Source: Candidatus Latescibacterota bacterium (GTDB lineage Bacteria; Latescibacterota; UBA2968; UBA8231). From it: a stretch of 64,000 nt of DNA. Positions 11,746 to 51,404 of this stretch are shown here, piece by piece; the first letter of the stretch is position 1; each line of letters opens with the position of its first letter. The translations under genes were made by a program, and so were the position numbers. Location of the stretch: positions 1,568,001 to 1,632,000 of the forward strand of contig OY730476.1 of assembly GCA_963422735.1 (NCBI GenBank). Reading direction: 5' to 3'. Below the pieces are notes generated by a model that had not been told where the DNA came from, did not search any database, and saw only the letters and a list, made by a program, of their open reading frames with translations.

Positions 11746-11771
11746 TTGCTCAATAAATAGGGAGAGATGAT

Positions 11772-17506: not shown

Positions 17507-17518
17507 GGGCGGGAAGCG

Positions 17519-19273: not shown

Positions 19274-19397
19274 GACTGAAAGAGAAAATGCTTGACAAAA
19301 AAGGTGACTCATTATTTTTTAGATACTTTTGCATTATGCGTCTTAAAAGGGCGTTTTTCATCATTCACTCAACCAACAATAGATAGGGGGTTGTAGC

Positions 19398-20360: not shown

Positions 20361-20394
20361 ATCACTCGCTTAAAGCAGCAAATATCCGTATGTG

Positions 20395-20432
20395 GAACGG
20401 GTAGGTCTTTATTGATCTACCCGTTCTTTTTT
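20395..20432 (+). terminator. Intrinsic terminator
   Basis: GAACGGGTAG-gtctttattgat-CTACCCGTTC followed by TTTTTT. Confidence 0.9.
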
Positions 20433-20474
20433 GTCATATTTTTTTCATTTCCTCAGTCAAGTCACAAGGCCGTT

Positions 20475-22400
20475 ATGCCCCAGCGCATTGGGATTCTCCT
20501 CGCATTTGGATGGTGTTTTTGGGGTCGGCCGGCTTCCGTTGCCGCCCTGACCGTAATCCGCCTCGGAGGGGAGGATCTGCCCCCGCCCGATTTGGAGGTT
20601 CCCTACGAGTTCGTGCAGTTGTCATGGGCCGGAGTGGACCCCAAGAGGCATGGCTTGGCCGAACTAGTAAAAATAGATACCGGCTTTGTCGAGCCGCTGC
20701 ACTTGGATCCCACTGTCAATTTGGTGCCGATGCTCAAAGAGCGCGGCGGACAGATCCTGTCCCTGACTTGGATCGGCTGGGGGCCGGCTAGCGGTAACGA
20801 CTTAGCCATATTCGATGGCGACCCCACGACGGCTTTTTTGGGCGATGGCGATTGGGGCGGGGATTACGGCGTCATTCGCCAGAAATCGCTAATTTTCGAC
20901 TTTGGGGGCCGCTTTTTCCTCGAGCGCATTCGCTTTTCCCCTCGCGAGCGATTTTTGGCCGACCGGTTTGTGCAACGCTTCATCATCGGCATCAGCGACG
21001 GCGATCCGCTCAAGAAAGGCACTCGGGAATTCACGCAGGGCATCCGGGGTAGCTTCTTTGACTTCGACCTTCCGTACGATGTCTTCGAGAACATCGAGTC
21101 CGTCATTGATATGCCCTTGCCGACCGTGCCGGTGCAGCAGTTGCTATTTGAAGCGCCTGAGAACACGACCGGTATCTGGGAGATCGCGGAGTTGGAAATC
21201 TACGGCAATGGTTTTGCGCCGTTTGCCAGCTATGTGTCGAACGTGATCGACCTGGGTGGCCCTGCCAGCCTCGGTAGTCTGACGTGGGCTGGCCAACAGG
21301 GTGAAGGAGCCACGCTGGCGTTGAGTACGCGCAGTGGCCACGACGACGATCCCAACACCTACTGGCGCTACACCTTTCGCGGCGGTGAGCGCACCCGCTT
21401 CGACGCCAAGGGGCACCCGCTAACCTTGGCGTCATACAACAGACTTGCCAGCGGTGCGCAGGCGGGCATCACCCACGACACAGCCGGGTGGACCTTCTGG
21501 AGCACCGCACAGGACTTTGCCGCTGGCGAGGGGGTCATCGCCGGGGCCGGTCCACGCCAGTTTGTGCAGGTGCGCATCGACTTCACCTCGGGGCAGAGTG
21601 TCAGTGGTCGGCTCGACTGGGTGGCACTGGCGGTGTCGATCCCGCCGGTGGCGCAACAAGCCGTCGCCGAGATCATGCCTTCGGTGGTGCCACCGGGGGC
21701 TGCCGCCGCGTTCACCTATAAGGTCAAGGCGTCGATGGCCAGCGATGACTTGGGCTTTGACCGGTTAGCCATCGATACGCCGGCACGGGTGCAGCGCGTG
21801 GATGAGGTGCGCTTGTCGGGTCAGCCGGTGGCCTTCGATGTGGTCCAGAGCGACGACACCGGAGTGGTGTTGGCCGTGCCCTTAGTGGATACGCAGCGCA
21901 CCGAAGAGGTGTTAGAGGTGGACTTTCACGCGTCGGTATTCCAGTTTGGCACGGTGTTTACGGGTCGCATTTTCAACAGCCAGCATCCGGCGGAAGTGCC
22001 GCAAGCGTTAGCCTGGGGCGATGCCGATGGGGTGCCTTCCAGCGAGCGGCTGCGGGTGGATTTGACGGGGTTGGGTACGGGTCCGTTGGGTGCATTGTCG
22101 GTGGATCCTGGGGTGTTTAGTCCCAATGGGGATGGGATTAACGATGTAGTAGAGGTCGGCTGCGATGTGCTGAATTTGTCGGGGTTGTCGTCGGTGATTT
22201 GTTGGGTGTATGATGTGTCGGGTCGTCGCGTGGGCTTGGTGGGTGAGTCCTGGTTGGGTAGTGGTCGGTATGTGGGGGTGTGGGAGGGTCGGGATGAGAA
22301 AGGTTCTTTGTTGCCTCCGGGATTGTATGTGGTGGGTTTGAGTGTGGAGACGGATCAGGGGACGACGCAGAGGCAGGCTGTCGTCTCCTTGGTATACTAA
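20475..22400 (+). CDS. Secreted protein with FlgD-Ig/CHU_C-like C-terminal domain
   Basis: Start moved to ATG 20475 because the ORF-track start lies inside the terminator. IFDFGGRFFLERIRFSPR, GIWEIAELEIYG, VFSPNGDGIND...WEGRDEKG..LPPGLY. Confidence 0.85.
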   Translation: MPQRIGILLAFGWCFWGRPASVAALTVIRLGGEDLPPPDLEVPYEFVQLSWAGVDPKRHGLAELVKIDTGFVEPLHLDPTVNLVPMLKERGGQILSLTWIGWGPASGNDLAIFDGDPTTAFLGDGDWGGDYGVIRQKSLIFDFGGRFFLERIRFSPRERFLADRFVQRFIIGISDGDPLKKGTREFTQGIRGSFFDFDLPYDVFENIESVIDMPLPTVPVQQLLFEAPENTTGIWEIAELEIYGNGFAPFASYVSNVIDLGGPASLGSLTWAGQQGEGATLALSTRSGHDDDPNTYWRYTFRGGERTRFDAKGHPLTLASYNRLASGAQAGITHDTAGWTFWSTAQDFAAGEGVIAGAGPRQFVQVRIDFTSGQSVSGRLDWVALAVSIPPVAQQAVAEIMPSVVPPGAAAAFTYKVKASMASDDLGFDRLAIDTPARVQRVDEVRLSGQPVAFDVVQSDDTGVVLAVPLVDTQRTEEVLEVDFHASVFQFGTVFTGRIFNSQHPAEVPQALAWGDADGVPSSERLRVDLTGLGTGPLGALSVDPGVFSPNGDGINDVVEVGCDVLNLSGLSSVICWVYDVSGRRVGLVGESWLGSGRYVGVWEGRDEKGSLLPPGLYVVGLSVETDQGTTQRQAVVSLVY

Positions 22401-22468
22401 AGGAGACGAGTATAGCGGACGATGCACAATTTCCGTACCCTAAACGAGTTAAAACACCTCAGAACATA

Positions 22469-25054
22469 ATGGGAAACGCTATGAATATCTTCGGACGCGT
22501 CCTTTTTATTGGGCTAGCTATCGCACTGGCTGGGACTGCCGTGTGCGCCCAGCAGCCCGGCCATCGGGTCGGCGGCAATCGAGTCGTGATCAATGGCCGC
22601 AACCATTGGCAGAACTGGGAATCCGCCCCGGGGACCTTGACGATTTCTCCGGACGGAGAAGTGCGCACCCGGCGCATTCAAAAAAATACCAATGCAATGT
22701 TCGACATTGTCGATTACTTGCGCTTTAATCCGCCGGTGTCTTTCGGCGGCAAAGAACCCGAGGAAATTGTCCTCGCCGATGCCGTCAAGGGCGGCTCTAA
22801 TGTCGCTGATGTGGTCAACCTGCTCGACGGCGATATCACCACCTATTGGCAGCCCGACCCGCTCTCGGCCGACAGGGACTTGGCTTCGCAGTGGTGGTTT
22901 GTGATCGACTTAGGCCGCGTGGTTTTTGCCAAAGAACTCGTGGTGCGCTTTGTCGAGGAGGGCATGGGCGATCCCTTTCTCCTCTTCGAGGTGCTCATCT
23001 CCGACGGGCTGAAGCCAGCGCGTTTGCAAAACAGCGAAAACCCAGCCTTTAAGACCGTGTTGCGGACCTTGAGCAAAAGCAAGAGCCAGCGGGTCTTTAC
23101 TGTTGATCTGACGAACCAACAGCCCAACGTGCAGGCCGCGGCCGTGCGCTTTGTGCAAATTTTGGTCACGGATACCGATGGGATGCTTGGCACGGAAGTC
23201 TCTGCCGGTGAATACGAAACCCTCAGTGAAGAGACGCGTGGCGCGATCCAGTACTTCAAGCGCCAGCCCGATGGCCGCGAGGTGCCCGTTGATCAAGACC
23301 TGTACTACATATTGGATGAGGAACGCCGGGGCAGCATCCGCTACTTTCGCCGGGAATTGCCCCGCTTGGCCGAGTTGGAAGTATGGAACGAAGGGGACGA
23401 ACTAACCGCTGGCATCCTCGCGCGCGGCGGCGTCATCTCCACCAATGCGAAGCAGCCGCTGGCCTTGACCAAGTTTGTCGATGGCGACTTGGCGACCTTC
23501 AATCGCATCTTTTACGGGGTCTCCACAGCGGTGGCTGATCCCGAGTTGGAGTTGGTCTTCGACTTGGGCTCCTTTTATTGGGTCGATACCTTCCGCCTGA
23601 TTTACAACGGCGGTTTGTTCCCTAGCTATCGGATGGATTTTTCCGACGGCACCCTTGCGCCGGACGGCAGTCTCCAGTGGACCACCAAGGCGTCGCTGGG
23701 TTCGCGGCCCCACTCGCGGTTTGAAGGCGAGGCGTTCGAGCCGATTAAGGCGCGGTTTGGCCGCTTTCAGTGGACCTTGAATGCCATTGGTGCCCGCACG
23801 GCCGATATAGCTGAACTACAGTTCTACGGCGAAGGCTTCCAACCGGAGGTCTCGCTGCGGTCAGACCTGATTCGCTTGGGCGGCAGCCGCAATCTGCTGT
23901 CGATTGAGTGGGATGCCGACGCCCCTCCCGGCACCCAAGTGCTGATTCAGACTCGCACGGGCAATGAATTGGGCGAGATACTGCACTATTTCAAAAAAGA
24001 CGGCACAGAAGTGACCGAAAGCGAGTACAACAAGCTGCTGTCGCTGTTCAAGGGCGACACTGTCGCCGAGCAGGTGCCCGGCAGCGATTGGAGCAATTGG
24101 AGCGAGCCCTACGAGGATCCGGCGGGCAGTCCAATTACCTCGCCATCGCCACGGGAATTCCTGACCGTACAGGCGACCTTACTGTCGGAAGACCCAGAGG
24201 TAAGCCCAACGTTGCGCTCGGTCCATCTCAACTTCGCCAATCCCGTTGCACAGCAGCTACTGGGAGAGATCGGCCTGTTCGAGGTGGACGAACTCGGGGT
24301 GCAACGGCCGTTTTCGCTTTATGTGCGGCCGGAATTTGACCGCCGCGATTCGGGTTTTGACGAGTTGTTGTTATTCGCGCCGTCGAACATGGAACTGGAT
24401 ATGGTGGGCCTTTACGGTGGTCGGGTGGCGGATTTCGACAGCGAGACGGGGCCCAGCGCACTGACCGGGGTCGAGGTTCTGCCTACGGGCCGGGACTCGT
24501 TGCACATGCGCTTTGATGCGATACAGCCCAATGGATCTACGGAAGTGCTGAGGCTGGATTTTGAGACTGCGCTTTTTGTCACCGGCGCGGTGTTACAGGC
24601 GGCCCTGCGCAATAGCAGCGCAGACGGCGGTGCTTGGCAGCGGATCGACCCGGGGGAGGCTCTAACGCAGGTCGTCGGCAACACCACGACGATTGTCGCT
24701 GCTGTGGAGCACAACGCTCTGCTTACAAATGTGGCTGTGTTGCCGGAGGCCTTTTCGCCCAACGGCGACGGGATCAACGACCGCACGGTCTTTGCCTTCA
24801 ATGTTGTGCGAGTCGGCGACGATAGCCCGGTAGCCGCCGAGATCTACGATTTGGGAGGCCGCCAAATACGGCGTCTCGCGCAAGAGCGCCCATTTAGCAC
24901 CGGGCCTTATGAGATTGAATGGGATGGTCGGGACGACGGTGGGCGCATGGTGCCGCCGGGTCTGTATTTAGTGCAGCTAAGCGTGGATACTGATATCGAG
25001 GGAACGCAGGTTAAAGACGCGCATATATTCAAGACGGTCTCTGTGGCGTATTGA
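22469..25054 (+). CDS. Secreted protein with two discoidin/jelly-roll-like modules and FlgD-Ig/CHU_C-like C-terminal domain
   Basis: Signal peptide, LLDGDITTYW...WFVIDLGR, LVFDLGS...IAELQFYG, AFSPNGDGIND...WDGRDDGG..VPPGLY. Confidence 0.85.
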   Translation: MGNAMNIFGRVLFIGLAIALAGTAVCAQQPGHRVGGNRVVINGRNHWQNWESAPGTLTISPDGEVRTRRIQKNTNAMFDIVDYLRFNPPVSFGGKEPEEIVLADAVKGGSNVADVVNLLDGDITTYWQPDPLSADRDLASQWWFVIDLGRVVFAKELVVRFVEEGMGDPFLLFEVLISDGLKPARLQNSENPAFKTVLRTLSKSKSQRVFTVDLTNQQPNVQAAAVRFVQILVTDTDGMLGTEVSAGEYETLSEETRGAIQYFKRQPDGREVPVDQDLYYILDEERRGSIRYFRRELPRLAELEVWNEGDELTAGILARGGVISTNAKQPLALTKFVDGDLATFNRIFYGVSTAVADPELELVFDLGSFYWVDTFRLIYNGGLFPSYRMDFSDGTLAPDGSLQWTTKASLGSRPHSRFEGEAFEPIKARFGRFQWTLNAIGARTADIAELQFYGEGFQPEVSLRSDLIRLGGSRNLLSIEWDADAPPGTQVLIQTRTGNELGEILHYFKKDGTEVTESEYNKLLSLFKGDTVAEQVPGSDWSNWSEPYEDPAGSPITSPSPREFLTVQATLLSEDPEVSPTLRSVHLNFANPVAQQLLGEIGLFEVDELGVQRPFSLYVRPEFDRRDSGFDELLLFAPSNMELDMVGLYGGRVADFDSETGPSALTGVEVLPTGRDSLHMRFDAIQPNGSTEVLRLDFETALFVTGAVLQAALRNSSADGGAWQRIDPGEALTQVVGNTTTIVAAVEHNALLTNVAVLPEAFSPNGDGINDRTVFAFNVVRVGDDSPVAAEIYDLGGRQIRRLAQERPFSTGPYEIEWDGRDDGGRMVPPGLYLVQLSVDTDIEGTQVKDAHIFKTVSVAY

Positions 25055-28815: not shown

Positions 28816-31800
28816 ATGTCCGACGAAAAGACACAGCCTACGGAAAACCACCAAGATACCCAGTGGACTCGTTTTCTTGAGGAATTGCGCCAGTGGCCTT
28901 GCGACGCTCCTCAATGGGAAGGAGTCCAAAGATTTATCGACCAAGTCCAACTCGTGGCAGAGCAGAAGGGTCGAGAACGGGAAGAGGCCGGACGATTCCA
29001 ACTCCAGCAGGTCTTGGAGAAATTGCAAGAGAACTACGAGGTAATTCTCGTCGATTACTTTCAATGCTCAAACCTATCCAAATGGGAAGCGGCTAGCTGC
29101 CCTATGGACCAAGTTGCCGAGCGGACGGAGGCTGTCAAAGATCTGCTAGCGCAACTGGACCGACGTCAAACGCTCGACCAAGAGGTTCCACAAAATCACT
29201 TGGAAGGCCGCAAGAAACGGACGGAATTGGGTGAAGTAGAGCTTCGGATCAGCAAGTTGGTGGAACGACTCGGCCAAGATTTTCCTACGGATCTCTTGGA
29301 GCCGCCTTTGGACGACGCTGCCGAAGAGAATGATCAGCTATCCCCGGAGCCACCAAGTTCCGAAAGAGACTCTTCTGGTGCTCCCACTGACCAAAAAGCT
29401 GAAGAAGACGCCAGCTCATTCAAAAAAGCTCTGCAAAAGGAAGCCATTCTTGAAGAAAAACCCCAAACGCCGCCTCTCCCTCAACCAGAAGACCGCGAGC
29501 CAGCCCCTGTCCAAGCTACCCCACCTGATGAGAAGCCCCTGTCTTTGCGCTCGGCTCAAGAGGTGGCGGTCCTGTTGCAAGCAGAAGACTCGGATGAACA
29601 CTGGGAATCGTTGGGATGGAGCTTACTGGCTGAAGATGACTTGGCCGGAGCCTACTGGCTGGCTCGTTCTCTGAAAGCAGCGGGCCGCGATGTGCCGGTT
29701 GCCCCGGAATTGCTTGCCGCGCTGCAAGAGGCGCACTGGTTGGAGAATGATACCGACAGTTTGGTCTCCGATATCCGGCAGATTGCTTCGGAGTATGCTC
29801 CCCAAAGTACTACTTCCGAGCGGTTGGTAGGGTTGGCTGCGGCTTTGCGTCCCAGCTTGGTTGCCCCGCACACTGGCTTGGTCGGCTGGCTCCCGCAAAA
29901 AGATGAAGTCAATCCCGGACTGGGTACGCTAGCCGAGGCTGTTCGCACTTTTGCGTCAGCAGGTCATCCCTTGCGGGCTGAAGATCAACAGGGAGCAGAA
30001 GGCAGGGCAACTCACGAGAAGGACATTAAAGAGACCGTTGAGCAGGCCCGTCGCTTCTTGGCCACTAATCAGGTTAGCAAGCTGAAGTTCAAACGGGCAA
30101 CCGATGTGTTGCATCGGTTGGTGTCCCCGGAAGGGGATTTAACCCTCTTGCTCACTCCGGTCATTAAAAATAAGGCCGACCAAGTAGCGCAAGTCCGGCA
30201 GCGCATAATCGATTTCGGGGAGCGCAAGCAGATTGAACGTTGCCTCCATCAGATTGATCAAGACTTGGCCGGGGCCAAAAAACGCAAAATCACAGGAGAT
30301 CCCATCAATCAGTTGGTGCGGAGTGTCGAAGAAGCTGTCGGTCTGGCCAATAGCTGGTGTTCCCTAATTACGCGGGAACGGGTCGCCCGAGACAAGGGCG
30401 ACTGGTGGGCCGGTCATGTGGAGAAACTGCGCCGCCGAGTACAGGAGGTCCTCCCCGATGTCAATGTCGAACTCAAGCGAATGCAAGACCAACTGCAAGA
30501 AGAAGCCGCGTTGGGCCATGTTCTACGGTGGGCCATAGGCCAAGTAACAGGTATGCTCGGCCTGGAGGAGCAAGCCGATATTGAGGGACCTGAAGAAAGG
30601 ATGAAGAGCGGGAGCAATTCACTGGGCATAGCTTTATCCCACCGCTTGTTGTATGTCCCCGAAATTTTCCTCGACGAAGATGGCCATCCTACAAAGGATC
30701 AGGAGGGCGATATTGCCAAGTATTTGCGTCAGTCCCTAGCTGAAAAACGCGCACTCCCCATGGCTTGGGAGATGCGGATTGAAGGACAGGATTTTCGTTT
30801 CACTGATGTATTGATGAATGCGTTGGAAGACTATGAGGATCGCCAACGGCTTGAAGATCGAAACGACGAGGAGCTCAAAAGTGCTCAAGCAGGGCTAAAG
30901 GACGACGTCAACCGTGTGGAAGGTGCTATCGAAAAGGGACTAGTGGACGGCCTGATCTCAGAAAAAGAACGCGCCGCTCTCAGTGCTAAACTGCCGAGAG
31001 TTGAAGAGGCTTTGTACTTCCCACCTTTGTTCCGGCGATTAGATGATATCGGAGAGCAATTGGAGCAAAAGCTCGAAGAACGGCTACGAGAGTTGGAAGT
31101 TCAATGGAAGGAAATGAGGCAAGGCTTAGCGCAGAGTATCCAAGCCGACCTAACAACCGCGGCGACATCTATTCAAAGAGCTTTTACGCAGCGCGATACT
31201 AGGGTTATAGAAGAAAGTCTGGCCCACTTGCGCGAAATTCGCGCCGGTGAACGCGAATGGCAGGATGAGTGGTTTGCCCGACCCGACAAGCTCGACATCT
31301 TCAAGAAGTTCCAAGAGGCTTGTCCTCGCATTGAAGAAGCACTTAGCAGTTTGGGTAGTGTTGCGCGACTAGCCGAAGTGATTGAGCAAGGCCAAACTTG
31401 GGCAGACATGGAGTTTGGCGAATTGCCCCAAGAATGCCAGGAAGAGGCCGCCAAAGTGCTGCGTTCTTGGCACCAGCTAAAACGCCTTGATGGACAACAG
31501 AGTAAAAACCAAAGATATATCCAAGTTCTTTTAGAGTACTTGGGTTTCCGCCCGTCGGAAGGAAAATCGGCCGTGAGCGTACGCGTGAAAAAGCGCGATC
31601 AAGATTGGCTCTACTGCCAAGTGGATGCTTTGGCCAGCGACCTAGTGCGGCCCATCCCGCAGTTGGGCTCGCAAGCCAGCGGCTGCTACAATGTGGTGTG
31701 TTTTTGGAAACGCCCTAGGGCTGCCTCCATTGGAGCGTTTTTGCGCGAATTGGGACTGGATAATCAGACGGTGGTTGTTTTTTCTTTCCAGCGATTGTCT

Positions 31801-34050
31801 GAACGATCGCGGCGCGACATTGCCGCCCGAGCCAGAGAAAAGCAATTAGCTCTGGTAGTGCTAGATGAAATTTTGCTGGTATTTTTGGCGGGGCTTGACG
31901 ATGCTCGCCTTCCAATCTTCCTACGTTGTAGTCTGCCCTACGCTGCCCTCAATCCCTATACGCCGTTCCAAGCGGGAAATGTACCACCTGAAATATACTA
32001 CGGCCGCGATGAGATGATCCGCCAGCTAAACGAGGCGTCTTGCATCGTGTTCGGCGGGCGACAGCTGGGCAAATCCTCCCTGTTGCGCCAAGTGGAGCGC
32101 GAGTTCCACCAACCCACACGCAAGCAATACGCTTGGGTTGAGGACATCAAGCTAGTGGGAGATATACTTACAGGCGAGCAGCCGGCTCGGCTGTGGATCA
32201 AATTGCGCGATGGCTTTAAGAATAACTCTCTAATAAGAGCAACAGAGGCAAACCAGCCTGAAAGGATCATCCAATACATCAAGAAAGCGATGGAGGAGTC
32301 GCCCCAGCTGCGAGTTTTGGTTCTGTTTGACGAAGCCGATCACTTTCTCTCCGCCGATGCCAAGAACGGTTTCCAAGTGGTCGAGGGCTTGCGGAACTTG
32401 ATGTCGAATACCCAAGGGCGCTTCAGAGTAGTCTTTGCTGGCCTGCACGATGTCCAGCGTTTTAACAATATCGCCAATCAGCCTCTGGCCCATTTCGGTC
32501 AGAGCTTATTGATAGGACCTCTAGAGGCTGAGCCAGCCCAGCAGTTAGTGCAAGAGCCGCTAGATATATTGGGCTACCGGTTCGCCGATGAGACCACCGT
32601 GCTCAAAGTTTTGTCCTACACCAATTACCACCCGGGTTTGATACAGTACTTCTGTCACGAACTCGTCAACCGGCTCCAGGAAAAAAAGTATTCGTCGGGA
32701 CCGCCCTATGAAGTGCTCGCAGACGATGTAGAGGCAGTATATCGCACCCCTAGAGCACGGCAGATCATTCGGGAACGGCTTGACTGGACCTTGGCCCTAG
32801 ATCATCGCTACCAGTGCATCGCTTGGACTATGATCTATGCCCAGAAAGAGACGCGCGATAGCTATGTCCGTTCATTCAGCGCAGCCGAACTTCTCGAACT
32901 AGCGCATGAGGAGTGGTCGCAGGGTTTCGAGAAATGCGATAGCCAAGTTTTTAGGGTATTGCTCGAAGAAATGGTTGGCTTGGGTATATTGGTGCGCAAT
33001 TTGGAAAACCAATATCTGCTACGCAGTCCCAATCTGGTTCGCCTCATGGGTACCGTAGAGGATATAGAGTACCGTTTGCTAGAACTGGCTGAAAAATCTC
33101 CACCGTCTCAACTTCGTCCCGAAAGTCAGCATGTGTTGCTAGAGGCCCAAAACCGCCTGTATAGTCCCTTGACGTTGACGCAGCAAAGCGATTTGCAAGA
33201 AAGTGGGGAGTCGGGCGTAGCTTTAGTTTTTTGCTCTCCAGCATTGGGGCTGAATGTGTTGGACCAAGCCTTAAACCGCATAGGCGGAAGCGAGATTCCC
33301 GCCCAAGAATTGACCCGAGTCGAACGAACCTGTGCGTGGTTGCAAGACTATGCTGCCCGGAAACGACCCGGGGCCGACCAGTCCTTGGTGTATGGCCAAC
33401 TCAAGGGCACAGGAGGCAATATGGCCCAATGCGTCTGGCGCGTATGGCAAATGTGCGAAATTTTTAAGCAGGGGCGAAGACGGCCGCTAAAAGTGGTTTT
33501 TGCTTTCAATCCAGCGGCCACTCGGTCTTGGCTGAAGGTAGATGCAGACCAGCGCACAGATCGGGAAAATCGGGCGGAGCTCATGTATCTGCGCCGTTGG
33601 GACGAAGTAGGCATTCAGCAGGCGTTGAGCCAAGCCGAGAAAATGGATTCGCCCGAGGTCTGTCAAAAGGTACTGGAAGCTACGGGGGGATGGCCTTTCT
33701 TGCTGGACGCTCTTTTGCGCCGGTGTGGCGACGATACCAACCCTCGACCTTATGCAGATACCTTGATCGAGGAGACGGGGTCTGAGTTGCTACGTCAGGT
33801 TGGATTGGATTATCAGGAGTCTCTGGTTTTGCGGAAGCTCGCCGAGCTTGGCACAGTCCAAGATACGGATGAAGATTTAGAGACCTTGAGAAGTTTTATA
33901 AATGAAGACACTCTCGAAGATGACGCTCCTCTTACGATAGATGCCTGTAGGCTGACTGTGGAGTTTTTGCACCGAATGCAATGCCTTAAAAAGAATAACG
34001 AGGAGTACCGCGTTGAGTCCGTCTTGGGTCAAGTAGTTAGCCTTCTATGA
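28816..34050 (+). CDS. 1744-aa STAND-like P-loop NTPase with long helical N-terminus and a second, degenerate STAND-like module
   Basis: NPYTPF...YYGRD, Walker A GGRQLGKS (~32053-32076), Walker B VLVLFDEAD, TNYHPGLIQ, winged-helix-like LLEEMVGLGIL, and a later ATGGWPFLL. Confidence 0.85.
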   Translation: MSDEKTQPTENHQDTQWTRFLEELRQWPCDAPQWEGVQRFIDQVQLVAEQKGREREEAGRFQLQQVLEKLQENYEVILVDYFQCSNLSKWEAASCPMDQVAERTEAVKDLLAQLDRRQTLDQEVPQNHLEGRKKRTELGEVELRISKLVERLGQDFPTDLLEPPLDDAAEENDQLSPEPPSSERDSSGAPTDQKAEEDASSFKKALQKEAILEEKPQTPPLPQPEDREPAPVQATPPDEKPLSLRSAQEVAVLLQAEDSDEHWESLGWSLLAEDDLAGAYWLARSLKAAGRDVPVAPELLAALQEAHWLENDTDSLVSDIRQIASEYAPQSTTSERLVGLAAALRPSLVAPHTGLVGWLPQKDEVNPGLGTLAEAVRTFASAGHPLRAEDQQGAEGRATHEKDIKETVEQARRFLATNQVSKLKFKRATDVLHRLVSPEGDLTLLLTPVIKNKADQVAQVRQRIIDFGERKQIERCLHQIDQDLAGAKKRKITGDPINQLVRSVEEAVGLANSWCSLITRERVARDKGDWWAGHVEKLRRRVQEVLPDVNVELKRMQDQLQEEAALGHVLRWAIGQVTGMLGLEEQADIEGPEERMKSGSNSLGIALSHRLLYVPEIFLDEDGHPTKDQEGDIAKYLRQSLAEKRALPMAWEMRIEGQDFRFTDVLMNALEDYEDRQRLEDRNDEELKSAQAGLKDDVNRVEGAIEKGLVDGLISEKERAALSAKLPRVEEALYFPPLFRRLDDIGEQLEQKLEERLRELEVQWKEMRQGLAQSIQADLTTAATSIQRAFTQRDTRVIEESLAHLREIRAGEREWQDEWFARPDKLDIFKKFQEACPRIEEALSSLGSVARLAEVIEQGQTWADMEFGELPQECQEEAAKVLRSWHQLKRLDGQQSKNQRYIQVLLEYLGFRPSEGKSAVSVRVKKRDQDWLYCQVDALASDLVRPIPQLGSQASGCYNVVCFWKRPRAASIGAFLRELGLDNQTVVVFSFQRLSERSRRDIAARAREKQLALVVLDEILLVFLAGLDDARLPIFLRCSLPYAALNPYTPFQAGNVPPEIYYGRDEMIRQLNEASCIVFGGRQLGKSSLLRQVEREFHQPTRKQYAWVEDIKLVGDILTGEQPARLWIKLRDGFKNNSLIRATEANQPERIIQYIKKAMEESPQLRVLVLFDEADHFLSADAKNGFQVVEGLRNLMSNTQGRFRVVFAGLHDVQRFNNIANQPLAHFGQSLLIGPLEAEPAQQLVQEPLDILGYRFADETTVLKVLSYTNYHPGLIQYFCHELVNRLQEKKYSSGPPYEVLADDVEAVYRTPRARQIIRERLDWTLALDHRYQCIAWTMIYAQKETRDSYVRSFSAAELLELAHEEWSQGFEKCDSQVFRVLLEEMVGLGILVRNLENQYLLRSPNLVRLMGTVEDIEYRLLELAEKSPPSQLRPESQHVLLEAQNRLYSPLTLTQQSDLQESGESGVALVFCSPALGLNVLDQALNRIGGSEIPAQELTRVERTCAWLQDYAARKRPGADQSLVYGQLKGTGGNMAQCVWRVWQMCEIFKQGRRRPLKVVFAFNPAATRSWLKVDADQRTDRENRAELMYLRRWDEVGIQQALSQAEKMDSPEVCQKVLEATGGWPFLLDALLRRCGDDTNPRPYADTLIEETGSELLRQVGLDYQESLVLRKLAELGTVQDTDEDLETLRSFINEDTLEDDAPLTIDACRLTVEFLHRMQCLKKNNEEYRVESVLGQVVSLL

Positions 34051-35333
34051 GCTTGGGACTGACTAATTCCCTCGTGCAGATGCCCACGGCCCGGCAACTG
34101 CTCAACCTCATGCTGCGCGACCTGAGGAGCGGCCGCAGTGTGTTGGGCTTGCTACCCGAAGGAGTTGATTCCAGTCTGCTGCGGTCGGCTTTGTGGGATG
34201 GTCTGGAGCACTTGCATCTGCATATTGAAGAGATTGCTATATCCGATTTAGACGCCCAAATACCAATAGCGGCTTTAGGTCAAGCTATGGGAGTAGATTG
34301 GGGTGCTCCTACTACAGCGCGCACGGTAGGCAATCTCTTAAAACAAGCAGACTGGCTCGAAATTTTGTTCCTCGAGGGCTTTAACGAATTAACTGAAGAA
34401 AGCCGAGTACAGTGGCTGCAACTTATGGAGAGGTGGGCACGAGAATGCCAAGGTGGGGACTATGCTGACGCGAGCCCCCCGGCACTATGTCTGCTGGCTG
34501 AAGCATCGAAAATACCTTACTCACTTCCCGCAGCGAATGTATTGCTGTCCATCCATGTCTGGAGGGGCATCCCCACTACTGCGGAAATGCGGTTGTTGTG
34601 CCAATTGGCCGGTGAGCAGGATACTACTCCTTTAAGCTGCTGGAAAGAGCACACGATTCCATCCCTTGCGGGTTCTGATTTGGAATTGGTCGATTATTTG
34701 TGGGCAGAAGAGTATTGCGATGGAAGAGAATTGGCGGGTGTACTACAGATTTTTGCTGAGAGGCGCGGCTGGAATCAGGATGAGTTAGAGGCTTGGTCGG
34801 CTCATAGACTGCCCCAAGATGCGACTACTTGGCTAGATGACTGGCCGTTGTCTCCTCGTTTATACAGGGCTTGGGCCCGGGGGATAGTGCATTGGACCCC
34901 GGAGCACGGTCTGGAACGCCACAGCGCGGTCTTGGCCATGCTGGATCAACAAGAAGCCTTGGATCATCGATTGTGGCGTGGTCAGGCAGAATTTCTCTTG
35001 GCCCAAATTGACCAAATACGATTGGGTTTGTGTGCTCACCTCAACGAAACCTATGGACCAGCTTGGCCTTATAAGTGGCAAAAACCGGAGACCGATATAG
35101 AATGTCAGGAGGTAAGAGAAACGCCCTTTGCCTGTCAGTGGGGGCACCTGAAATTTTTGCTGCAAAACTGCTCGGAACTGCATAGAGAACGACGGTGGTC
35201 TTCCTTAGTGCAATACTCGTGGCACATTCGCACGAAACTAGCGCACTATCGCCCTATATCCCTCCAAGAATACGAAAAATTCTACCGGGAACGAATGCTT
35301 AGTCATCGGAACGGTCCATTGACCGCTTGGTGA
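34047..35333 (+). CDS. 428-aa protein with degenerate P-loop-like N-terminus and C-terminal HEPN-like domain
   Basis: ATGA overlap with the NTPase gene. C-terminal ...LNETYG..W...WGHLKFLL...IRTKLAHYRPIS contains R-x4-H. Confidence 0.7.
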   Translation: MSLGLTNSLVQMPTARQLLNLMLRDLRSGRSVLGLLPEGVDSSLLRSALWDGLEHLHLHIEEIAISDLDAQIPIAALGQAMGVDWGAPTTARTVGNLLKQADWLEILFLEGFNELTEESRVQWLQLMERWARECQGGDYADASPPALCLLAEASKIPYSLPAANVLLSIHVWRGIPTTAEMRLLCQLAGEQDTTPLSCWKEHTIPSLAGSDLELVDYLWAEEYCDGRELAGVLQIFAERRGWNQDELEAWSAHRLPQDATTWLDDWPLSPRLYRAWARGIVHWTPEHGLERHSAVLAMLDQQEALDHRLWRGQAEFLLAQIDQIRLGLCAHLNETYGPAWPYKWQKPETDIECQEVRETPFACQWGHLKFLLQNCSELHRERRWSSLVQYSWHIRTKLAHYRPISLQEYEKFYRERMLSHRNGPLTAW

Positions 35334-44767: not shown

Positions 44768-45030
44768 GCTGGTGGGCTGCTACTTGGCCTCGCAGATGGC
44801 AAGAAGCCCGTGGCATTCCGATGCTGATAGCGTGCGCCGTCAGGTGGTTTACCGCATGCGCGACCCCGTATCCCGCACTCGTCGTATTTCCCCTCTCTCA
44901 CCAGCTTAGCAATTATCCGCTGCGGCGGCTCTGATTCCATTTTACATAGCTGAGGCCGTCACCTTTTGCGTCGCGGTCGGCCCGGATTGGGCGCGGACAA
45001 AACAGGCCAGCAGTGCGCTATACTTGGTGC

Positions 45031-45320
45031 GGCAACCCCACCAACCTTTACCCGCGTCCTAACACCCTCGCCGGCAGATGCGTAGCCAGCTCCGGCACGA
45101 ACCACAGCCCCACCAACAGCAGCACCTGAATCGCGATAAAGGGCACGACTCCCCGATAGATATGTTGAACTGCCCTTTGGCCAGCGCCAAGAGCATGGCC
45201 CCCACCGCGCCAACCGAAGCCGCCTCAGTCGGCGTAGCCACCCCGAAGAGGATGGAGCCGAGCCACCCCACAGATGAGGACTAGGGGCGGCACGAGCGCT
45301 GCGCCGAGGCGGCGGATGAA
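45031..45320 (-). repeat. Decayed duplicate of the dctM 3' region
   Basis: 45031-45161 matches 49993-50123 and 45164-45320 matches 50526-~50683. About 400 bp between them is deleted, with scattered substitutions. Confidence 0.92.
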
Positions 45321-45362
45321 GTGAACGGAACCCGGTCCGCACCTAGGAAGGAGATGGGGACA

Positions 45363-46874
45363 GTGAATAAAAACATCTCGAGATATCTATTACCGGCTGT
45401 GCTGATTTCGGCTATGGCAAGTGCCGACACGCCAGCATCGTACGATCTGATGGCAGGAGCGTGTTTGTGGCCCTTAAGATCAGGGACGATATCTCTGTCT
45501 TAGGAGAGGCTGGCTTCTCGCGTACTTGGAACGACGATGCTGTAGAGGTCTACTTCGCCTCGGACCCTCTGACCTCCGGCGACAAATACGAGTCCAATGA
45601 TGGACAAGTGCGCATTTCATCGCATGATGGGCAGACCGCAAGCCTTGAGGGTGCGGTGGCTATTTTCGGCACACCAACACAATTGCCCTTTCTGTGGGAC
45701 GTGTTGGGAGTCCGGGCGGCCTTCTTGCGAGAAGGCGAGGTGACGAGCTACGAGGTTGAGCTGCCATCCCAAGTGTTAGGCAGGCCATGGCTTCCAAGCG
45801 GCGTAACTATAGGTCTGAATGTCAAGGTCACGGATGACGATGACGGGGGGGGGCTAGACCATGTGCTGAGTTGGATGCCAGACGAGAAGAGTAACAGTTG
45901 GATCGCCACAGACGGCTTCGCAGAAGTGCAATTCTCAGGCAATGTCTCCTCGGTGGACGAGGGTGAGGCACAGATGACGGAAGCTAGAGCGACAGAAGTC
46001 GCTATAGCTGAGAAAGCCATCGGAGCCCTCCGGTCCTATCAGGACGGTCGCCTTTCGCAAGCCTATACGGAGTTCTCAGAGATCCGTGCGGAAGGCACTG
46101 TCGCAGAGCAGGCGCTGAGCATCTTTGTTCTAGCTGAGATCGCAGAAGCGCGGGGCCACAGCGACAAGAAGGCCGAGTTGCTTGAAGATCTGATACAGCT
46201 TCGCCTCGGCCCGGGATGGTCTTCGTGGAGGGCGTCGTATGCCCTGTGGGAGCTAGGTTGGGCATACGTTGACATGGGCGAGCCTAGCAGGGCTAGAAGC
46301 ACCTTCACGGAGGGCCGTGACGTCGTGGCTGGTATTCTTGGAAGCGGAGTATTACTTCCACAGAGCACTCTCCTATTGCTTGCCGGTCGAGGGAGGAAGC
46401 ACCAACGATCAAGATCGCTATTCAAGTGAGGTGGTTCCGGTGCTCGAAGCGAAGGCGCGGAGCCGCAGCCCTCGGGCCTTCGCCGCGGCGAAGGTTCTGG
46501 CGCGCCATTATTTAGATAGCGAGCAATATGAGGATGCAGTGAGAGTTGCTGATATAGGGCTCGGAATTGATCCGCTGTATGATGGAACGCGGCTAGTCAG
46601 AGCGCACGCCTACGAACGCAGCGGAGACTACGAGAGCGCAATGGAGGACTTCCGCTTCGTCCACGAACAGGGAATGGATCCCGTCAAACGAGGATCCGCT
46701 ACCCTTGGAATTGCGAGGTGCCTAGCGGCAGCGGGCGACTGGTCTGGCGTTACGACCCTATTCAATAGCAACACGGGTCAATTCACGACCGCAGATCAGC
46801 AGATAAGTGCGGAAAGTCTTCTTCAGCGAGCCACAGCCGGTGGTAGGAGCGGCGGATGGTGGATCACCGAATGA
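45363..46874 (+). pseudogene. Secreted CBM9-like + TPR protein, two frameshifts
   Basis: Signal peptide in 45321-45503, CBM9-like motifs (VFVALKIRDD, DAVEVYF, IGLNVKVTDDDDG) in 45461-46429, TPRs continue in 46269-46874. Confidence 0.7.
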
Positions 46875-46923
46875 GGCACACACTGGATACTCACTCAGAC
46901 CATGGAATAGGAGGAAAAGGCAA

Positions 46924-47970
46924 ATGTACTGGTTCAGCTTAGATCGAGGGGCTCATTTAGGCTCGTGCAAGGCCACGCGGATCGGTTCTCTGCTCATAGG
47001 AGCTTGCGTGGCATTTTCGTCACCAACGCAGGTGGAGGCAGTCAGTGCTGAGGAGGCCGTTGCATCCGCGATTGGACAGTGGGATAGAGTGCAAAACGGA
47101 CACGGTCACTCTGTGGCTGAGTACCGTTGGGCAACTGGCAATATAGACACTCTGTCCGTGCTTTGGCAGCGAGAGCAGTGGGTTGCATTTGACAAGGAGC
47201 GTCTGCTCTCACAGACGGAGATGACTTTTTGGGGAGATAATGGAGAGCGAAAGACGTTCCATGTTGAAGAGTTCGATGGCGAAACGTGGACTCGTCTTGT
47301 GGGGAGTGACACTAGTAGGGTAGAGAGTGCATCAAGCGGGAACAGGCCGATGCCACACTCATACGAAGGTCATCCCGTTGGTTGGAGCGGCCTTCTCCCG
47401 GGCGATCCCAAGAGCCTTTTGGAAGAGGCTGCGAAACGCGGCGATTTTGAGGCCCAAGGTGTGGTGACGGAGAAAGGGCTACAGCGCCTTCTCCTCAAAG
47501 GCTCCGTTGTGGTTGATGATGTTGTTCGCAACATCGAATTCTGGCTGGCAGAAGAACGTGGGTATCTTCCGGTGAAAATCAGGATGCCCTTGGGCCCTGA
47601 TTACCCAGGGGAGTGCGTGGTACGGCTTGAATATCGGCAGTACGGCAGTGGAGTGTGGACCCTATCAGCAGGCAGGAGTACAATGACTGACAATGAGACG
47701 TATTTGACGGAACATACGGTCGCGTTCCAGCCGGACTTTAGTGTCAACACAGGCGCACATCCTCGCTTGGAAGAGGGGCTTCAGATCCCTCCAGGTACGC
47801 TCATCATTGATGAAAGCACGGGTAATCGTAGCATCAGGCATTCCGGAGGAGGACAGGGCTTCCTTGAAGACACCGGTCCACAGAACTGGGTGGCAATGGA
47901 GCCTCAGCTTCTCGATGACGAGCAGTTGGAGAAGGTGGTTGGTAGAGGGACAAGAGTGAAATGCAGCTAG
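46924..47970 (+). CDS. Secreted beta-rich (LolA/lipoprotein-sorting-like) protein ending in a double-glycine-type leader
   Basis: AGGAGG RBS, signal peptide, FWLAEERGYLPVKI, IPPGTLIIDE, tail LLDDEQLEKVVGRGTRVKCS*. Confidence 0.7.
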   Translation: MYWFSLDRGAHLGSCKATRIGSLLIGACVAFSSPTQVEAVSAEEAVASAIGQWDRVQNGHGHSVAEYRWATGNIDTLSVLWQREQWVAFDKERLLSQTEMTFWGDNGERKTFHVEEFDGETWTRLVGSDTSRVESASSGNRPMPHSYEGHPVGWSGLLPGDPKSLLEEAAKRGDFEAQGVVTEKGLQRLLLKGSVVVDDVVRNIEFWLAEERGYLPVKIRMPLGPDYPGECVVRLEYRQYGSGVWTLSAGRSTMTDNETYLTEHTVAFQPDFSVNTGAHPRLEEGLQIPPGTLIIDESTGNRSIRHSGGGQGFLEDTGPQNWVAMEPQLLDDEQLEKVVGRGTRVKCS

Positions 47971-48147
47971 ATATGCAACGAGTGCGAAGTCTCGTGGCCG
48001 TGCGATTGGGGTAGCTTTTGGTGCCGTGCGGGATGCGCCTCGGGGTCAAGCAATTGTAATCTGTCAAACAAGACGGACCTGTGTTGGTGGCAATGTCCGG
48101 GACTATATCCGCAGGTTGTTACGGGTTACGCAGGGTGTGGGAGTTGA
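47896..48147 (+). pseudogene. Putative Cys-rich precursor peptide interrupted by an in-frame TAG (47968-47970)
   Basis: MEPQLLDDEQLEKVVGRG-TRVKCS*ICNECEVSWPCDWGSFWCRAGCASGSSNCNLSNKTDLCWWQCPGLYPQVVTGYAGCGS* (10 Cys). Confidence 0.65.
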
Positions 48148-48262
48148 TCCTGCAGGGCAAGAAATAGCTAGGGGGTGAGTTCTTGTTACAACCTGCGGAT
48201 GGCGGTCCACAGGGCTTCACGGTGAGGGACCACGTGTGGTGTTCCACCGATAGACGTAAACA

Positions 48263-48720
48263 GTGAGACCATCGCGAGAGAAACCAGTTGCATTGGGCCG
48301 TGGCATCCTTACTGTGCTTGTTGCAGTGTTGCTATGGGTCCACCTAAGCCACGCGGAAAACGGTGTGTTGTGTGGTCCGAGGTCCCTCCTTGCGTGGTTG
48401 CATTTATCCGGAAAGCGAGCGTCTCTGGACGATGTCTTGACAGCAGTTCGGTACAAACCGGGAGCTGCCGTCAGTATGTTGAGTCTAAAGTCGGCGGCTG
48501 ATTATGGACTTGCCTTAGAGGGCTTGAGGATCAACCTAGAGGACTACGTGAATGAAGGGCTCCGGGGAATCGTGTTCCTCGACGGTGGCCACTTCGCCAC
48601 TGTAGTGGGGCATACAACCGACGCAGTTGCCTTAGTAGACCCCCGACAGCTTGGTGGTTGAAGTGTCTCAGGACACGCTGAGACGGCGTTGGGGAGGGAT
48701 AGTTCTCGTGCCTAAGAGTA
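48263..48720 (+). pseudogene. Standalone peptidase C39 domain with signal peptide, frameshifted at the 3' end
   Basis: CGPRSL...SMLSLKSAA...HFATVVG...VDP gives the Cys/His/Asp triad. The expected tail VEVSQDTLRRRWEG / IVLVP lies in other frames after 48650. Confidence 0.75.
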
Positions 48721-48762
48721 GTGCTGAAGTGCTGACTCCTCCTGCAACACCAACCTTGGCCG

Positions 48763-49872
48763 ATGATTTGTGATTCCCTAGCCACCTCAAGGGCGGGCTC
48801 AATTCTCGTCGGAGTGTGGCTGATAATCGGAGTCTCGGTGCTTTCTAGCTGTGACTTTCTCTTATTTTCTGAATTAGAAGATGGCAAGGACGCGGGGTTA
48901 GAGTTCGCAGGCTGGCTACCAGCTTGGGCAGGAGATGCCGGATACCTAAGTGTGCTTGAAAACCGGGAGATGTTAACTACCGTCTCTCCTGTGTGGTACC
49001 AAGTGAACGAGAGCGGAGAGATAAGGTTCGTTGGTCCAGATAATCATCGGCGGATCGTGGACTCACTGCAGGATATGGACATCGGCATCCTTCCTTCGGT
49101 GCCTCTCTTCGATCATGAGCTTTTCACGACGATTGTAACAGACTCAATGCGCTTCGAGCGGCACGTTGCTGGTCTTGTCGATATCGGCCCTGATCCGGCA
49201 AATGACGGGATTGACCTCAACTATGAGTCCATCAAGCTCACAGATGGATCGGCCTACTATGAGATCCTCAAGCGTGTGGCAGCGTCTCTACAGGCCGAGG
49301 GGAAGACCGTCTCGGTGACTGTATTAGCGGAGTGGTCTGACTCCTCAGATGTATATCCGTCGTTCAAGGAGACGCATGAGGTCATTGACTACGCAAAGAT
49401 CGCGGCGGTAGCAGATGAACTACGCATTATGGCCTATGACTTCACTTCTGCGTATATGCAGTCTCCTGGCCCGATCGGGCCGCTCACTTGGCAACATCAG
49501 GTCCTCAATTATGCGATTGCTAAGGGAGTACCAAGAGGGAAGATTGTTCTAGGAGTCCATCTCTACGGGTACGAGTGGCACGTAGTCGTCCGAGGAGAGT
49601 CAAGGGATGAGAAAGAAGAAAGGCCCTCGTTCACGCCAGACTTTAGAGACAACAGCATTACTGACGTCCGAGTGCGTACATACGATTACCGCCTTGTCAA
49701 GAAAGCACTGTCGATCGCCTCAAGGTCAGCCACTTCCGAGCAAACGGCCCATCAGGGAGAGCAGATTCTCCGCTATACCCGGGTGTACGAAGGAGGACGC
49801 CCAACAGAGGTCGGAGCTATCGCTGATGGCTTGGAATCTCGTCACTTCATAGTTGAACGATCCGACAAATGA
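48763..49872 (+). CDS. Glycoside hydrolase family 18 lipoprotein, probably C-terminally truncated
   Basis: VSPVWY, DGIDLNYE, IMAYDF, PGPIGP, KIVLGVHLYGYEW, lipobox LSSC. The last barrel strand is not seen. Confidence 0.8.
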   Translation: MICDSLATSRAGSILVGVWLIIGVSVLSSCDFLLFSELEDGKDAGLEFAGWLPAWAGDAGYLSVLENREMLTTVSPVWYQVNESGEIRFVGPDNHRRIVDSLQDMDIGILPSVPLFDHELFTTIVTDSMRFERHVAGLVDIGPDPANDGIDLNYESIKLTDGSAYYEILKRVAASLQAEGKTVSVTVLAEWSDSSDVYPSFKETHEVIDYAKIAAVADELRIMAYDFTSAYMQSPGPIGPLTWQHQVLNYAIAKGVPRGKIVLGVHLYGYEWHVVVRGESRDEKEERPSFTPDFRDNSITDVRVRTYDYRLVKKALSIASRSATSEQTAHQGEQILRYTRVYEGGRPTEVGAIADGLESRHFIVERSDK

Positions 49873-50009
49873 CGGAGACGTGGTCCAGTCAGTTGCCACG
49901 CCATCAAGGACATGGGCCTCGGAGATTGGCAGTAGGGGGATGGATGTGTTCCAGTCTGCCGGGTAAGCAGGGACAGACGCTATGATCAGGAAGGCAACCC
50001 CACCAACCC

Positions 50010-51404
50010 TTACCCGCGTCCTAACACCCTCGCCGGCAGATACGTAGCCAGCTCCGGCACGAACCACAGCCCCACCAACAGCAGCACCTGAATCGCGATA
50101 AAGGGCACGACTCCCCGGTAGATCTGCGGCGTGCTGATCTGAGGGGGAGCGACGCCGCGCAAGTAAAAGAGCGAAAAGCCAAACGGGGGCGTGAGAAAAG
50201 AGGTCTGCAAATTAAGGGCGATCATCACGCCCAACCACACGGGATCCAAGCCCATCGCCAAGAGGATCGGGCCGACGATGGGCACGACGACGAAGATGAT
50301 CTCGAAGAAGTCGAGAAAGAAGCCGAGCAAAAACATCACGACCATCACCAGCGCGAAAGAGCCGACCACGCCGCCGGTCACCTCATGGGTCAGAAAGTGC
50401 TCGACCGCTTCGTCGCCTCCGTAGCCGCGAAAGACCAACGAAAACGCGCTCGCGCCGATGAGGATGATAAAGACCATGGCGTTAATCTCGGTGGTGGTGC
50501 GCATGACTTGTTTGAGCGCGGCGCGGTTGAACTGCCCTTTGGCCAGCGCCAAGAGCATGGCCCCCACCGCGCCAACTGAAGCCGCCTCAGTCGGCGTAGC
50601 CACTCCGAAGAGGATGGAGCCGAGCACCCCACAGATGAGGACTAACGGCGGCACGAGCGCTGCGCCGAGGCGGCGGAGGAAAGCCGCGCTGAGAATTTGC
50701 ACGCGCTCCTCGGCCGGCACGGCCGGCACGGCGGCTGGTTTGAACAGGCCGAGACCGACTATATAGAGGATATAGAGACTCATCAGCACGAGGCCGGGCA
50801 AGAGCGCGCCCATAAAGAGGTCCCCGACCGAGACCGAGACCGGGGCGAAGTTGCCCATTTTGATCTGGGCCTGCTGATACGCTGAGGAGACCGTATCGCC
50901 GAGGATGACTAAGACGATGCTGGGCGGGATGATCTGGCCGAGCGTCCCCGAAGCGCAGATGATGCCGGTGGAAGCCGCTGGGGAGTACGCACGTTTGAGC
51001 ATGGCCGGCAGCGAAATAAGCCCCATGGTGACGACCGTCGCGCCGACGATGCCGGTGGAAGCCGCCAACAGGCCCCCGACCAGACAAACCGAAATCCCTA
51101 GCCCCCCGCACAAGCTGCCGCAGAGTTGGGCCATGGTTTCGAGTAGGTCCTCGGCGATTTTCGAGCGCTCTAGCACGACCCCCATAAAGACGAACAGCGG
51201 CACGGCCATCAGGGTCTCGTTGGCCATGATGCCGTAGATGCGGGCTGGCAAAGCCGAGAGAAAAGCCGCGTCAAAGTCGCCGGTGAGGACGCCGAGGCCG
51301 GCAAAGCCGAGGGCTGTACCCGCAAGGCAAAAGGCCACCGGGAAGCCGGATAGCAGCACCGCGAAGGTGCAGAGGAACATGGCCAGCGGCGCGAGTTCGC
51401 TCAT
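50010..51404 (-). CDS. dctM: TRAP transporter large permease
   Basis: GFPVAF, AVPLFVFMG, ASGTLGQIIPPS, ATPTEAA, FLTPPFG. ATG 51404 overlaps the dctQ stop. Confidence 0.95.
   Translation of the reverse strand: MSELAPLAMFLCTFAVLLSGFPVAFCLAGTALGFAGLGVLTGDFDAAFLSALPARIYGIMANETLMAVPLFVFMGVVLERSKIAEDLLETMAQLCGSLCGGLGISVCLVGGLLAASTGIVGATVVTMGLISLPAMLKRAYSPAASTGIICASGTLGQIIPPSIVLVILGDTVSSAYQQAQIKMGNFAPVSVSVGDLFMGALLPGLVLMSLYILYIVGLGLFKPAAVPAVPAEERVQILSAAFLRRLGAALVPPLVLICGVLGSILFGVATPTEAASVGAVGAMLLALAKGQFNRAALKQVMRTTTEINAMVFIILIGASAFSLVFRGYGGDEAVEHFLTHEVTGGVVGSFALVMVVMFLLGFFLDFFEIIFVVVPIVGPILLAMGLDPVWLGVMIALNLQTSFLTPPFGFSLFYLRGVAPPQISTPQIYRGVVPFIAIQVLLLVGLWFVPELATYLPARVLGRG

Follow-up and report, generated by a model that had tools for sequence, protein, structure and literature searches.

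Identity of the tail beyond the stop codon

In the 64,000-nucleotide stretch of a Candidatus Latescibacterota genome analysed here (the window), an open reading frame from ATG 46924 has the C-terminus ...LLDDEQLEKVVGRGTRVKCS, with Ser348 as its last residue, and is then closed by a TAG at 47968-47970. The question raised by this locus is whether the gene really ends there. Past the TAG the same frame stays open for 58 codons, up to a TGA at 48145-48147, and this tail encodes 10 Cys and 5 Trp; the program-made ORF list ends the frame at the TAG, so the tail is not included. A first-pass annotation had described such a stretch, missed by the ORF list, and its length and composition were confirmed in the sequence. 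In the host genome (G000), 613 long frames are followed by an open stretch of 40-120 aa; only 4 of these stretches contain at least 9 Cys, and the other three are Arg-rich and 110-120 aa long. The features of the locus are as follows.

45016..45320, no strand assigned: left boundary of the island, a partial copy of the 3' end of dctM with an internal deletion (matches 49978-50126 and 50526-50681 at 93-96%)
45354..46874, + strand: CBM9-like and TPR gene, split into three near 45460 and 46332-46336
46924..48147, + strand: fused gene, cut here by one nonsense codon (the whole allele, P0003, has 407 codons)
46924..47040, + strand: Sec-type signal peptide with basic n-region, hydrophobic stretch and V-E-A box (by eye and hydropathy)
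47041..47823, + strand: predicted LolA/LolB/LprG-like beta-rich carrier domain (structure model, Foldseek, hhalign)
47824..47904, + strand: hydrophilic linker of 27 residues, containing Met 47896 (best hydropathy -0.23)
47905..47946, + strand: double-glycine-type leader helix with L-12, L-7, V-4 and G-2 kept and Arg at P1 (same in P0003 and P0005)
47947..48144, + strand: core of 66 residues, its 10 Cys placed alike in three alleles (allele alignment)
47968..47970, + strand: TAG nonsense codon, Trp in the sister alleles (contigs and allele comparison)
48263..48773, + strand: stand-alone C39 peptidase with Sec-like N-terminus, Cys/His/Asp in place (PF03412, TIGR03796, alignment)
48763..49872, + strand: GH18-like exported protein (PF00704, E 6.7e-16)

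The signal peptide reaches a best 11-residue hydropathy of 2.3, and the ribosome site of the carrier start is strong (-10.2 kcal/mol). A hydropathy scan of the linker found no second signal peptide. Two further elements were observed nearby. A 16-nt inverted repeat with arms 62 nt apart (window 48107-48200) extends from the end of the core into the gap before the C39 gene. A GGAGGAGG run at 47846-47853 could be the relic ribosome site of a lost precursor gene; no in-frame start lies at a fitting distance from it.

The TAG codon

We compared contigs from 4 of 24 sequencing runs (X1, X7, X9 and X10) with the window at the TAG. Three of them bridge the codon with 0 differences: that of X1, possibly the source sample, covers 45287-50039 at depth 95, that of X7 covers 47416-48874 at depth 6.5, and that of X10 covers 47866-48016 at depth 2. 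The X9 contig terminates at the TAG codon. The first-pass annotation had advised checking reads at 47968-47970, and the TAG was upheld there. Sequencing error was rejected at the TAG, which is present in the X1, X7 and X10 contigs, and likewise at the frameshifts in the neighboring genes, where the X1 and X7 contigs show no gap.

The sister alleles indicate what the codon has replaced. P0003 is 407 aa long, exactly 348 + 1 + 58, and reads Trp where the window has the TAG; P0005 also has Trp there and runs on to the same C-terminal end. The tail had been claimed as part of the frame of a secreted protein, and in both alleles that is how it reads. Because the two alleles have Trp at this position and continue into the same tail, the TAG is a plain nonsense mutation. 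The annotation's own preference, a nonsense mutation in a decaying island, gains support from these alleles and from the frameshifted neighboring genes.

Programmed or suppressor read-through, by which this genome would still make the long form, draws on the open frame and on the occurrence of the TAG in several samples, but TAG is an ordinary stop in G000, ending 663 of 2,085 long frames; ARAGORN found no amber-anticodon tRNA among its 49 tRNA genes, and a search for PylS gave no match. None of these marks of pyrrolysine or amber recoding was therefore found, TAG not being depleted as a stop, and amber recoding was rejected. The sister alleles carry plain Trp and the neighboring genes are frameshifted. 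Read-through had already been called unsupported, and we agree: its probability is negligible. The genome does encode a tRNA-Sec (G000:C1:3028372-3028470).

The island and its site

The fused gene lies in an island at approximately 45000-49980, between mltF and dctM, with partial dctM copies at 93-96% as flanks and a G+C content of 55% versus 59.5% for the genome. No integrase gene was found in the island. The left dctM copy joins the last 149 nt of the gene to a piece approximately 400 nt further inside, an internal deletion. Among 18 genomes of the same genus, the mltF and dctM flanks are adjacent in 9, separated by other DNA in 5 and not resolvable in 4, and none of the 18 has a match to the island genes. 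The gap between mltF and dctM (window 44770-50010; L016-L020) is a variable site; L016, L017 and L020 fill it with a two-component system and repeat-rich exported proteins, and L016 also with an ATPase gene.

The island carries at least four lesions. Given the nonsense codon in the core and the frameshifts in the C39 and CBM9-TPR genes, this copy is dead, and with it the system in this genome. In a sister strain the CBM9-like and TPR parts form one protein (P0028). The GH18-like gene was not seen in the 11 distant cassette loci described below that were read, and is a passenger of the island.

Two other regions of the window drew our attention. At 28816-35333 (approximately 52% G+C), a 1,744-aa protein that weakly matches AAA_22 and an unknown ORF of 428 aa sit between the ATPase and permease genes of a sugar ABC transporter; PADLOC gave no match for the pair, which is possibly an inserted defence-like pair. 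The region 9490-25054 encodes a series of large proteins that look exported; several of them have FlgD/CHU_C tails, and two of the series (927 and 983 aa) have no Pfam match.

The carrier domain and its relatives

For P0003, the structure model has good confidence across most of residues 40-285 but not in the tail. A Foldseek search with the carrier (residues 40-290) returned LolA-superfamily proteins, LolB, LprG and RseB at E values of 9e-9 to 1e-4, with approximately 10% identity and a TM-score by target of about 0.5. On this modeling the carrier has a LolA-like fold. It differs from these proteins in its low identity, in carrying a leader-core tail and in its lack of a Pfam match; neither the carrier nor the precursors had a Pfam or NCBIfam match over cut-off.

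The nearest relatives outside the group (P0007-P0010 and P0012, 31-35%) end shortly after the domain, and the tail is found in none of the five; in 1.6 kb of DNA from one of them (L037) there is no precursor downstream. Whole-protein Atlas matches to planctomycete clusters at 0.89-0.90 are a lead only. P0025 (Candidatus Latescibacteria) is the carrier of a genome of the same phylum. A profile search for further carriers gave only 3 proteins out of the 8,000 that were scored, a weak negative.

An unfused cassette in the phylum

Among 168 genomes of the phylum, the carrier profile has matches in 6, all of one other family. In five of the six loci found by this carrier-first search, the gene directly upstream is small and encodes a hydrophobic N-terminus, a GG leader and a Cys-rich core, and the same five have an exported C39, mostly with DUF1573, in the same gene run. 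A C39-first search added 6 loci; linkage to C39 is there by construction, and the carrier-first count of 5/6 is the unbiased one. In total, 8 genomes hold the cassette, at 11 loci that contain 12 stand-alone precursors; these genomes are kin, and the counts are not independent. A precursor stands beside the carrier in 10 of the 11 loci, CBM9-TPR is present in 7 and a BlaR1-type M56 protein in 6, some contigs ending early. All 11 precursors for which hydropathy was computed have a hydrophobic N-terminus (2.3-3.25, versus -0.23 for the window linker); the L033 precursor, with a non-ATG start, was left out of this set.

The window carrier is homologous to the cassette carriers: hhalign, comparing two carrier sets without shared rows, aligned them over 259 columns at 98.8% and E 1.3e-16. 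One window operon holds such a carrier, an exported C39 and a leader with a Cys-rich core. L072 has the gene order of the window, namely CBM9-TPR, carrier, precursor and C39, but unfused, with the carrier stop less than 30 nt before the precursor start. Since the relatives keep carrier and precursor as adjacent separate genes, the window ORF is a fusion of two cassette genes. It departs from the cassette in that its precursor is fused and without a signal of its own, in the lack of DUF1573 on its C39, in its P1 Arg, and in an island without BlaR1/BlaI or a FlgD-type gene; it shares the leader register and a core of a kind that often ends in G-C.

The first-pass annotation had proposed looking among carrier homologs for leaders and Cys-rich tails beside C39 genes. 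The linkage holds in the distant cassettes, whereas a fused Cys-rich tail occurs in 0 of the 17 distant carriers with context, 6 of which (L034, L113-L117) lie outside any cassette. Homologs that stop at or before the TAG with no Cys-rich extension and no C39 linkage, named there as contrary evidence, were not what we found. The fusion is seen only within one 90% cluster and is lineage-limited, not a trait of the family.

The full cassette comprises a FlgD-type exported protein, CBM9-TPR, C39-DUF1573, BlaI/BlaR1 (M56), a Sec + GG + Cys-rich precursor and a LolA-like protein. Whole copies, all of one family (L032:978-8149, L035:1256-7270, L036:426-7133, L069, L071, L072 and L075), suit experiments better than the window. 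In L032, L118 and L119 a BlaR1-like N-terminus leads into a paralog of the carrier, an arrangement that suggests a ligand-binding role. The outer sensor region of these BlaR1-like proteins (L032:4724-6772, L118:4007-6055 and L119) is a paralog of the LolA-like carrier, and a further BlaR1-like protein (L118:8125-10998) has a CBM9-like region in its place. A full-text search of articles outside subscription journals, judged by title and abstract opening, found no paper on the unfused cassette or the fusion.

Leader register and cleavage site

We derived a position matrix from 12 stand-alone leaders of relatives, omitting P1. The window 14-mer ranks in the top 9 of 9,906,022 six-frame genome positions and is the only one of these 9 that precedes 6 or more Cys; its score of 17.3 is within the family leave-one-out range of 3.5-23.3. 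In this register (L-12, L-7, V-4, G-2), P2 is Gly340, P1 is Arg341 and the core comprises 66 aa from Gly342; an earlier placement of the cut after GRG was one residue out of register, Arg341 being P1. The hydrophobic residues at -12, -7 and -4 are L, L and V in three alleles, a feature of PCAT substrates, and the leader region is helical in a low-confidence structure model.

In published C39 sites, as given in the cited sections, P2-P1 is GG, GA or GS and the residues at -12, -7 and -4 are hydrophobic (PMC10885120, PMC6363468). A site of this double-glycine kind had been expected here and was not borne out, since P2-P1 reads Gly-Arg in all three alleles. The stand-alone precursors of the family have GG in 11 of 12 cases and GS in the other. 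The leader is also internal (residues 328-341 of 407) and not N-terminal on a small precursor. A literature search found no paper on Arg at P1 of C39 substrates. With Gly-Arg in 3/3 alleles against GG or GS in 12/12 precursors, release of the core stays putative: either a very diverged C39 accepts Arg at P1, or the core stays tethered.

The first-pass annotation had offered, as an alternative, a stand-alone precursor that starts at Met 47896, within the frame of the carrier. This Met is kept in 3/3 alleles, three residues ahead of the leader, but its product would have no signal peptide, while the family precursors have one and the C39 is exported. Its ribosome site (-5.7) lies inside the island background (quartiles -6.7, -4.6 and -2.5; n = 70 ATGs), compared with -10.2 for the carrier, no transporter-fused C39 was matched in G000, and in the window the TAG would end the product after 24 codons. 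We regard such a precursor as very improbable.

The C39 peptidase

The annotation had placed a C39 gene immediately downstream of the tail, and it is indeed the next gene, with signal and triad, though frameshifted. The frameshift falls in a C run at 48640-48644, just past the catalytic Asp, so that the last strands are in another frame. The truncated ORF matches PF03412 below the cut-off (E 0.002; 18.4 bits versus 22), with the Cys/His/Asp triad aligned, and TIGR03796 at E 8.5e-5. The peptidase stands alone, without the ABC-transporter fusion of PCATs. At E 0.01, PF03412 had no match in G000, and no transporter-fused C39 was matched there; the sole C39-like match in the genome is the window's own gene. 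The suggestion of an extracytoplasmic logic unlike that of PCATs agrees with the Sec-like N-termini on both carrier and C39 and with the lack of a linked ABC transporter.

No DUF1573 match was found within the island, unlike in cassette C39s. The window C39 obtains better scores against C39s of the cassette and stand-alone kinds than against those fused to transporters; in a C39 tree its row is on a long branch and in no supported set, and we give no placement. Its protein cluster has 1 member, with no whole allele seen, and a search for longer forms found none, a weak negative. In the genus and family of the host, L076-L082 contain stand-alone C39 genes of 160-200 aa whose N-terminus has a hydrophobic stretch. 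Their neighbors, labeled by eye, are glycosyltransferase-like or membrane-protein genes, and no carrier or Cys-rich precursor was seen with them.

Sister alleles and selection on the core

At 90% the carrier falls in a cluster of 5 members, and over the carrier the window is 92% identical to P0003. Of the five near alleles only P0003 is whole, the other four being broken or short: P0004 and P0002 stop at the carrier end or close to it, P0002 (84%) doing so where unfused carriers stop, P0005 is split from P0006 near residue 131, and the window has the TAG.

Against the window, none of the 10 core Cys is changed in the two sister alleles, while 17/55 and 18/55 of the other core residues are (p 0.037 and 0.029). 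The core has also changed more than the carrier and leader together (17/64 vs 27/342, p 7e-5; 18/64 vs 19/212, p 2.5e-4). Leader against core differs for P0005 (0/18 vs 18/64, p 0.009); for P0003 the corresponding p is 0.22, and between P0003 and P0005 themselves there is no significant excess of change in the core (p 0.19). The excess over carrier and leader argues against drift after inactivation, which would not produce it. With Cys kept and other residues varied, the comparison points to selection on the core after fusion.

The core cysteines are even in number (10) and their spacing is fixed across three alleles; the core ends in a G-C motif, and 7 of 12 family cores likewise have G-C no more than four residues from their end. 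These cysteines may form disulfides or may instead bind metal. Searches of G000 (95% complete) for DsbA, DsbB and VKOR gave no match, and a DsbD-type match is present. Structure models of the tail are poor (pLDDT under 40 in one, 47 in another); an Atlas search with the tail had no usable match, and a PDB sequence search with leaders and cores gave nothing better than E 0.14.

A protein search with P0003 in 132 genomes of the class matched only G000, where no second core or paralog of the fused ORF was found at useful scores. P0003 had no match in metagenome contigs, viral contigs or plasmids. Its sole genome-contig match, L038 (39% over 47 residues), was taken as chance, and P0011 and its cluster were dropped as spurious, being warthog repeats.

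Release, tethering or decay

The explanation that we consider best, although we hold it tentatively and at less than an even chance, is that the intact gene encodes a fused, exported proprotein whose core would be released by a periplasmic C39. Two adjacent genes, for a LolA-like partner and for a precursor with a double-glycine-type leader and Cys-rich core, have fused, and the whole allele would be a 407-residue Sec-exported proprotein of a periplasmic peptide-processing cassette. The precursor has lost its own signal peptide, and the signal of the partner would export both parts. The most likely periplasmic role of the LolA-like domain is to bind or chaperone the tail, and the co-encoded exported C39 would dock on the leader helix and cut after Gly340-Arg341. 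The freed peptide, with 66 residues, 10 Cys and fast evolution, would act outside the cytoplasm as a ligand or antagonist. Export, binding, cleavage, disulfides and activity are all predicted for the whole allele. The more specific form, in which the LolA fold serves as a 340-residue exported pro-domain and the periplasmic C39 frees a hypervariable ten-Cys peptide at Gly-Arg through a changed P1 specificity, is possible but doubtful.

The P1 Arg might instead block C39, making a functional fusion without release. The Cys-rich domain would then stay tethered to its LolA-like partner in a single-chain complex, and the leader helix would either be a relic or serve for intramolecular docking. This Arg is fixed in 3/3 alleles and present in 0/12 stand-alone precursors, conserved Cys with a varied surface would be expected of any selected domain, and the window C39 is without the DUF1573 domains of the cassette C39s. 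However, all three recognition residues of the leader are kept, its score remains typical of the family, and the next gene is still a C39 with signal and triad; permanent tethering seems to us rather unlikely. A by-product of decay, a deletion having joined two genes in a dying island with P0003 not yet hit, would account for the state of the near alleles, 4/5 of them broken or short, for the lesions of the window island, and for a fusion confined to one 90% cluster while P0002 ends like unfused carriers. It sits poorly with a tail that is unshifted in three alleles with 10/10 Cys kept while up to a third of the remaining core residues differ, and with the clean loss of the precursor signal across an in-frame hydrophilic linker; some of the breaks in P0002, P0004 and P0005 may moreover be assembly or contig-end artefacts. 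We judge decay improbable as the origin of the fusion.

Relation to known systems and significance

The locus resembles the double-glycine/C39 systems (PCAT or AMS: ComA-ComC, LahT-LahA, PCAT1; class II bacteriocins and microcins) in its amphipathic leader with hydrophobic -12/-7/-4 and Gly at -2, in the C39 (Cys/His/Asp) next door, and in the pairing of a conserved leader with a variable core. It differs in that the C39 is stand-alone with a Sec-like signal and no ABC transporter, and in that the leader starts at residue 328 of 407 in an exported protein and has Arg at P1. It works like a double-glycine/C39 system, but its P1, internal leader and lack of an ABC transporter place it outside the class.

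FapD of the Pseudomonas Fap amyloid operon is described as a periplasmic, Sec-exported C39 that needs its catalytic Cys, and its authors suggest that the class may use another recognition sequence (cited sections of PMC5557850). The window C39 is likewise stand-alone, of the Sec-exported type and periplasmic by prediction. Unlike here, the FapD substrate is unsettled (FapE or FapF) and amyloid-related, and the same sections mention no LolA-like partner or Cys-rich core (PMC5557850). Polymorphic toxins, as far as the cited portion of PMC3482391 describes them, share the exported carrier, the internal cleavage motif and the variable C-terminus, which in the toxins a peptidase releases; the window tail differs in being a small Cys-rich peptide, and C39 is listed there among toxin domains and does not have the releasing role. 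We found no immunity gene or orphan tail cassettes: the next gene is the C39, and G000 holds no second core or paralog.

Genome-mining tools seek small precursors with N-terminal leaders that neighbor ABC-fused C39s. They miss a precursor that forms the C-terminal end of an exported protein of 400 residues, and likewise a cassette whose precursors are exported by Sec. The window copy is dead, the fusion occurs in one small cluster only, and the larger discovery is the unfused cassette. The natural fusion is nevertheless a single-chain construct with which to probe the role of the LolA-like protein, and it offers a direct test of the substrate of a periplasmic C39, which the FapD paper left open. 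If the more specific form with release at Gly-Arg is true, double-glycine chemistry would have moved outside the cytoplasm, freed from ABC transport. The fusion would then be a Rosetta-stone clue that the LolA-like protein of the unfused cassette is the dedicated binding partner of the peptide, and the BlaR1-like receptors with the same LolA-like domain would sense such peptides.
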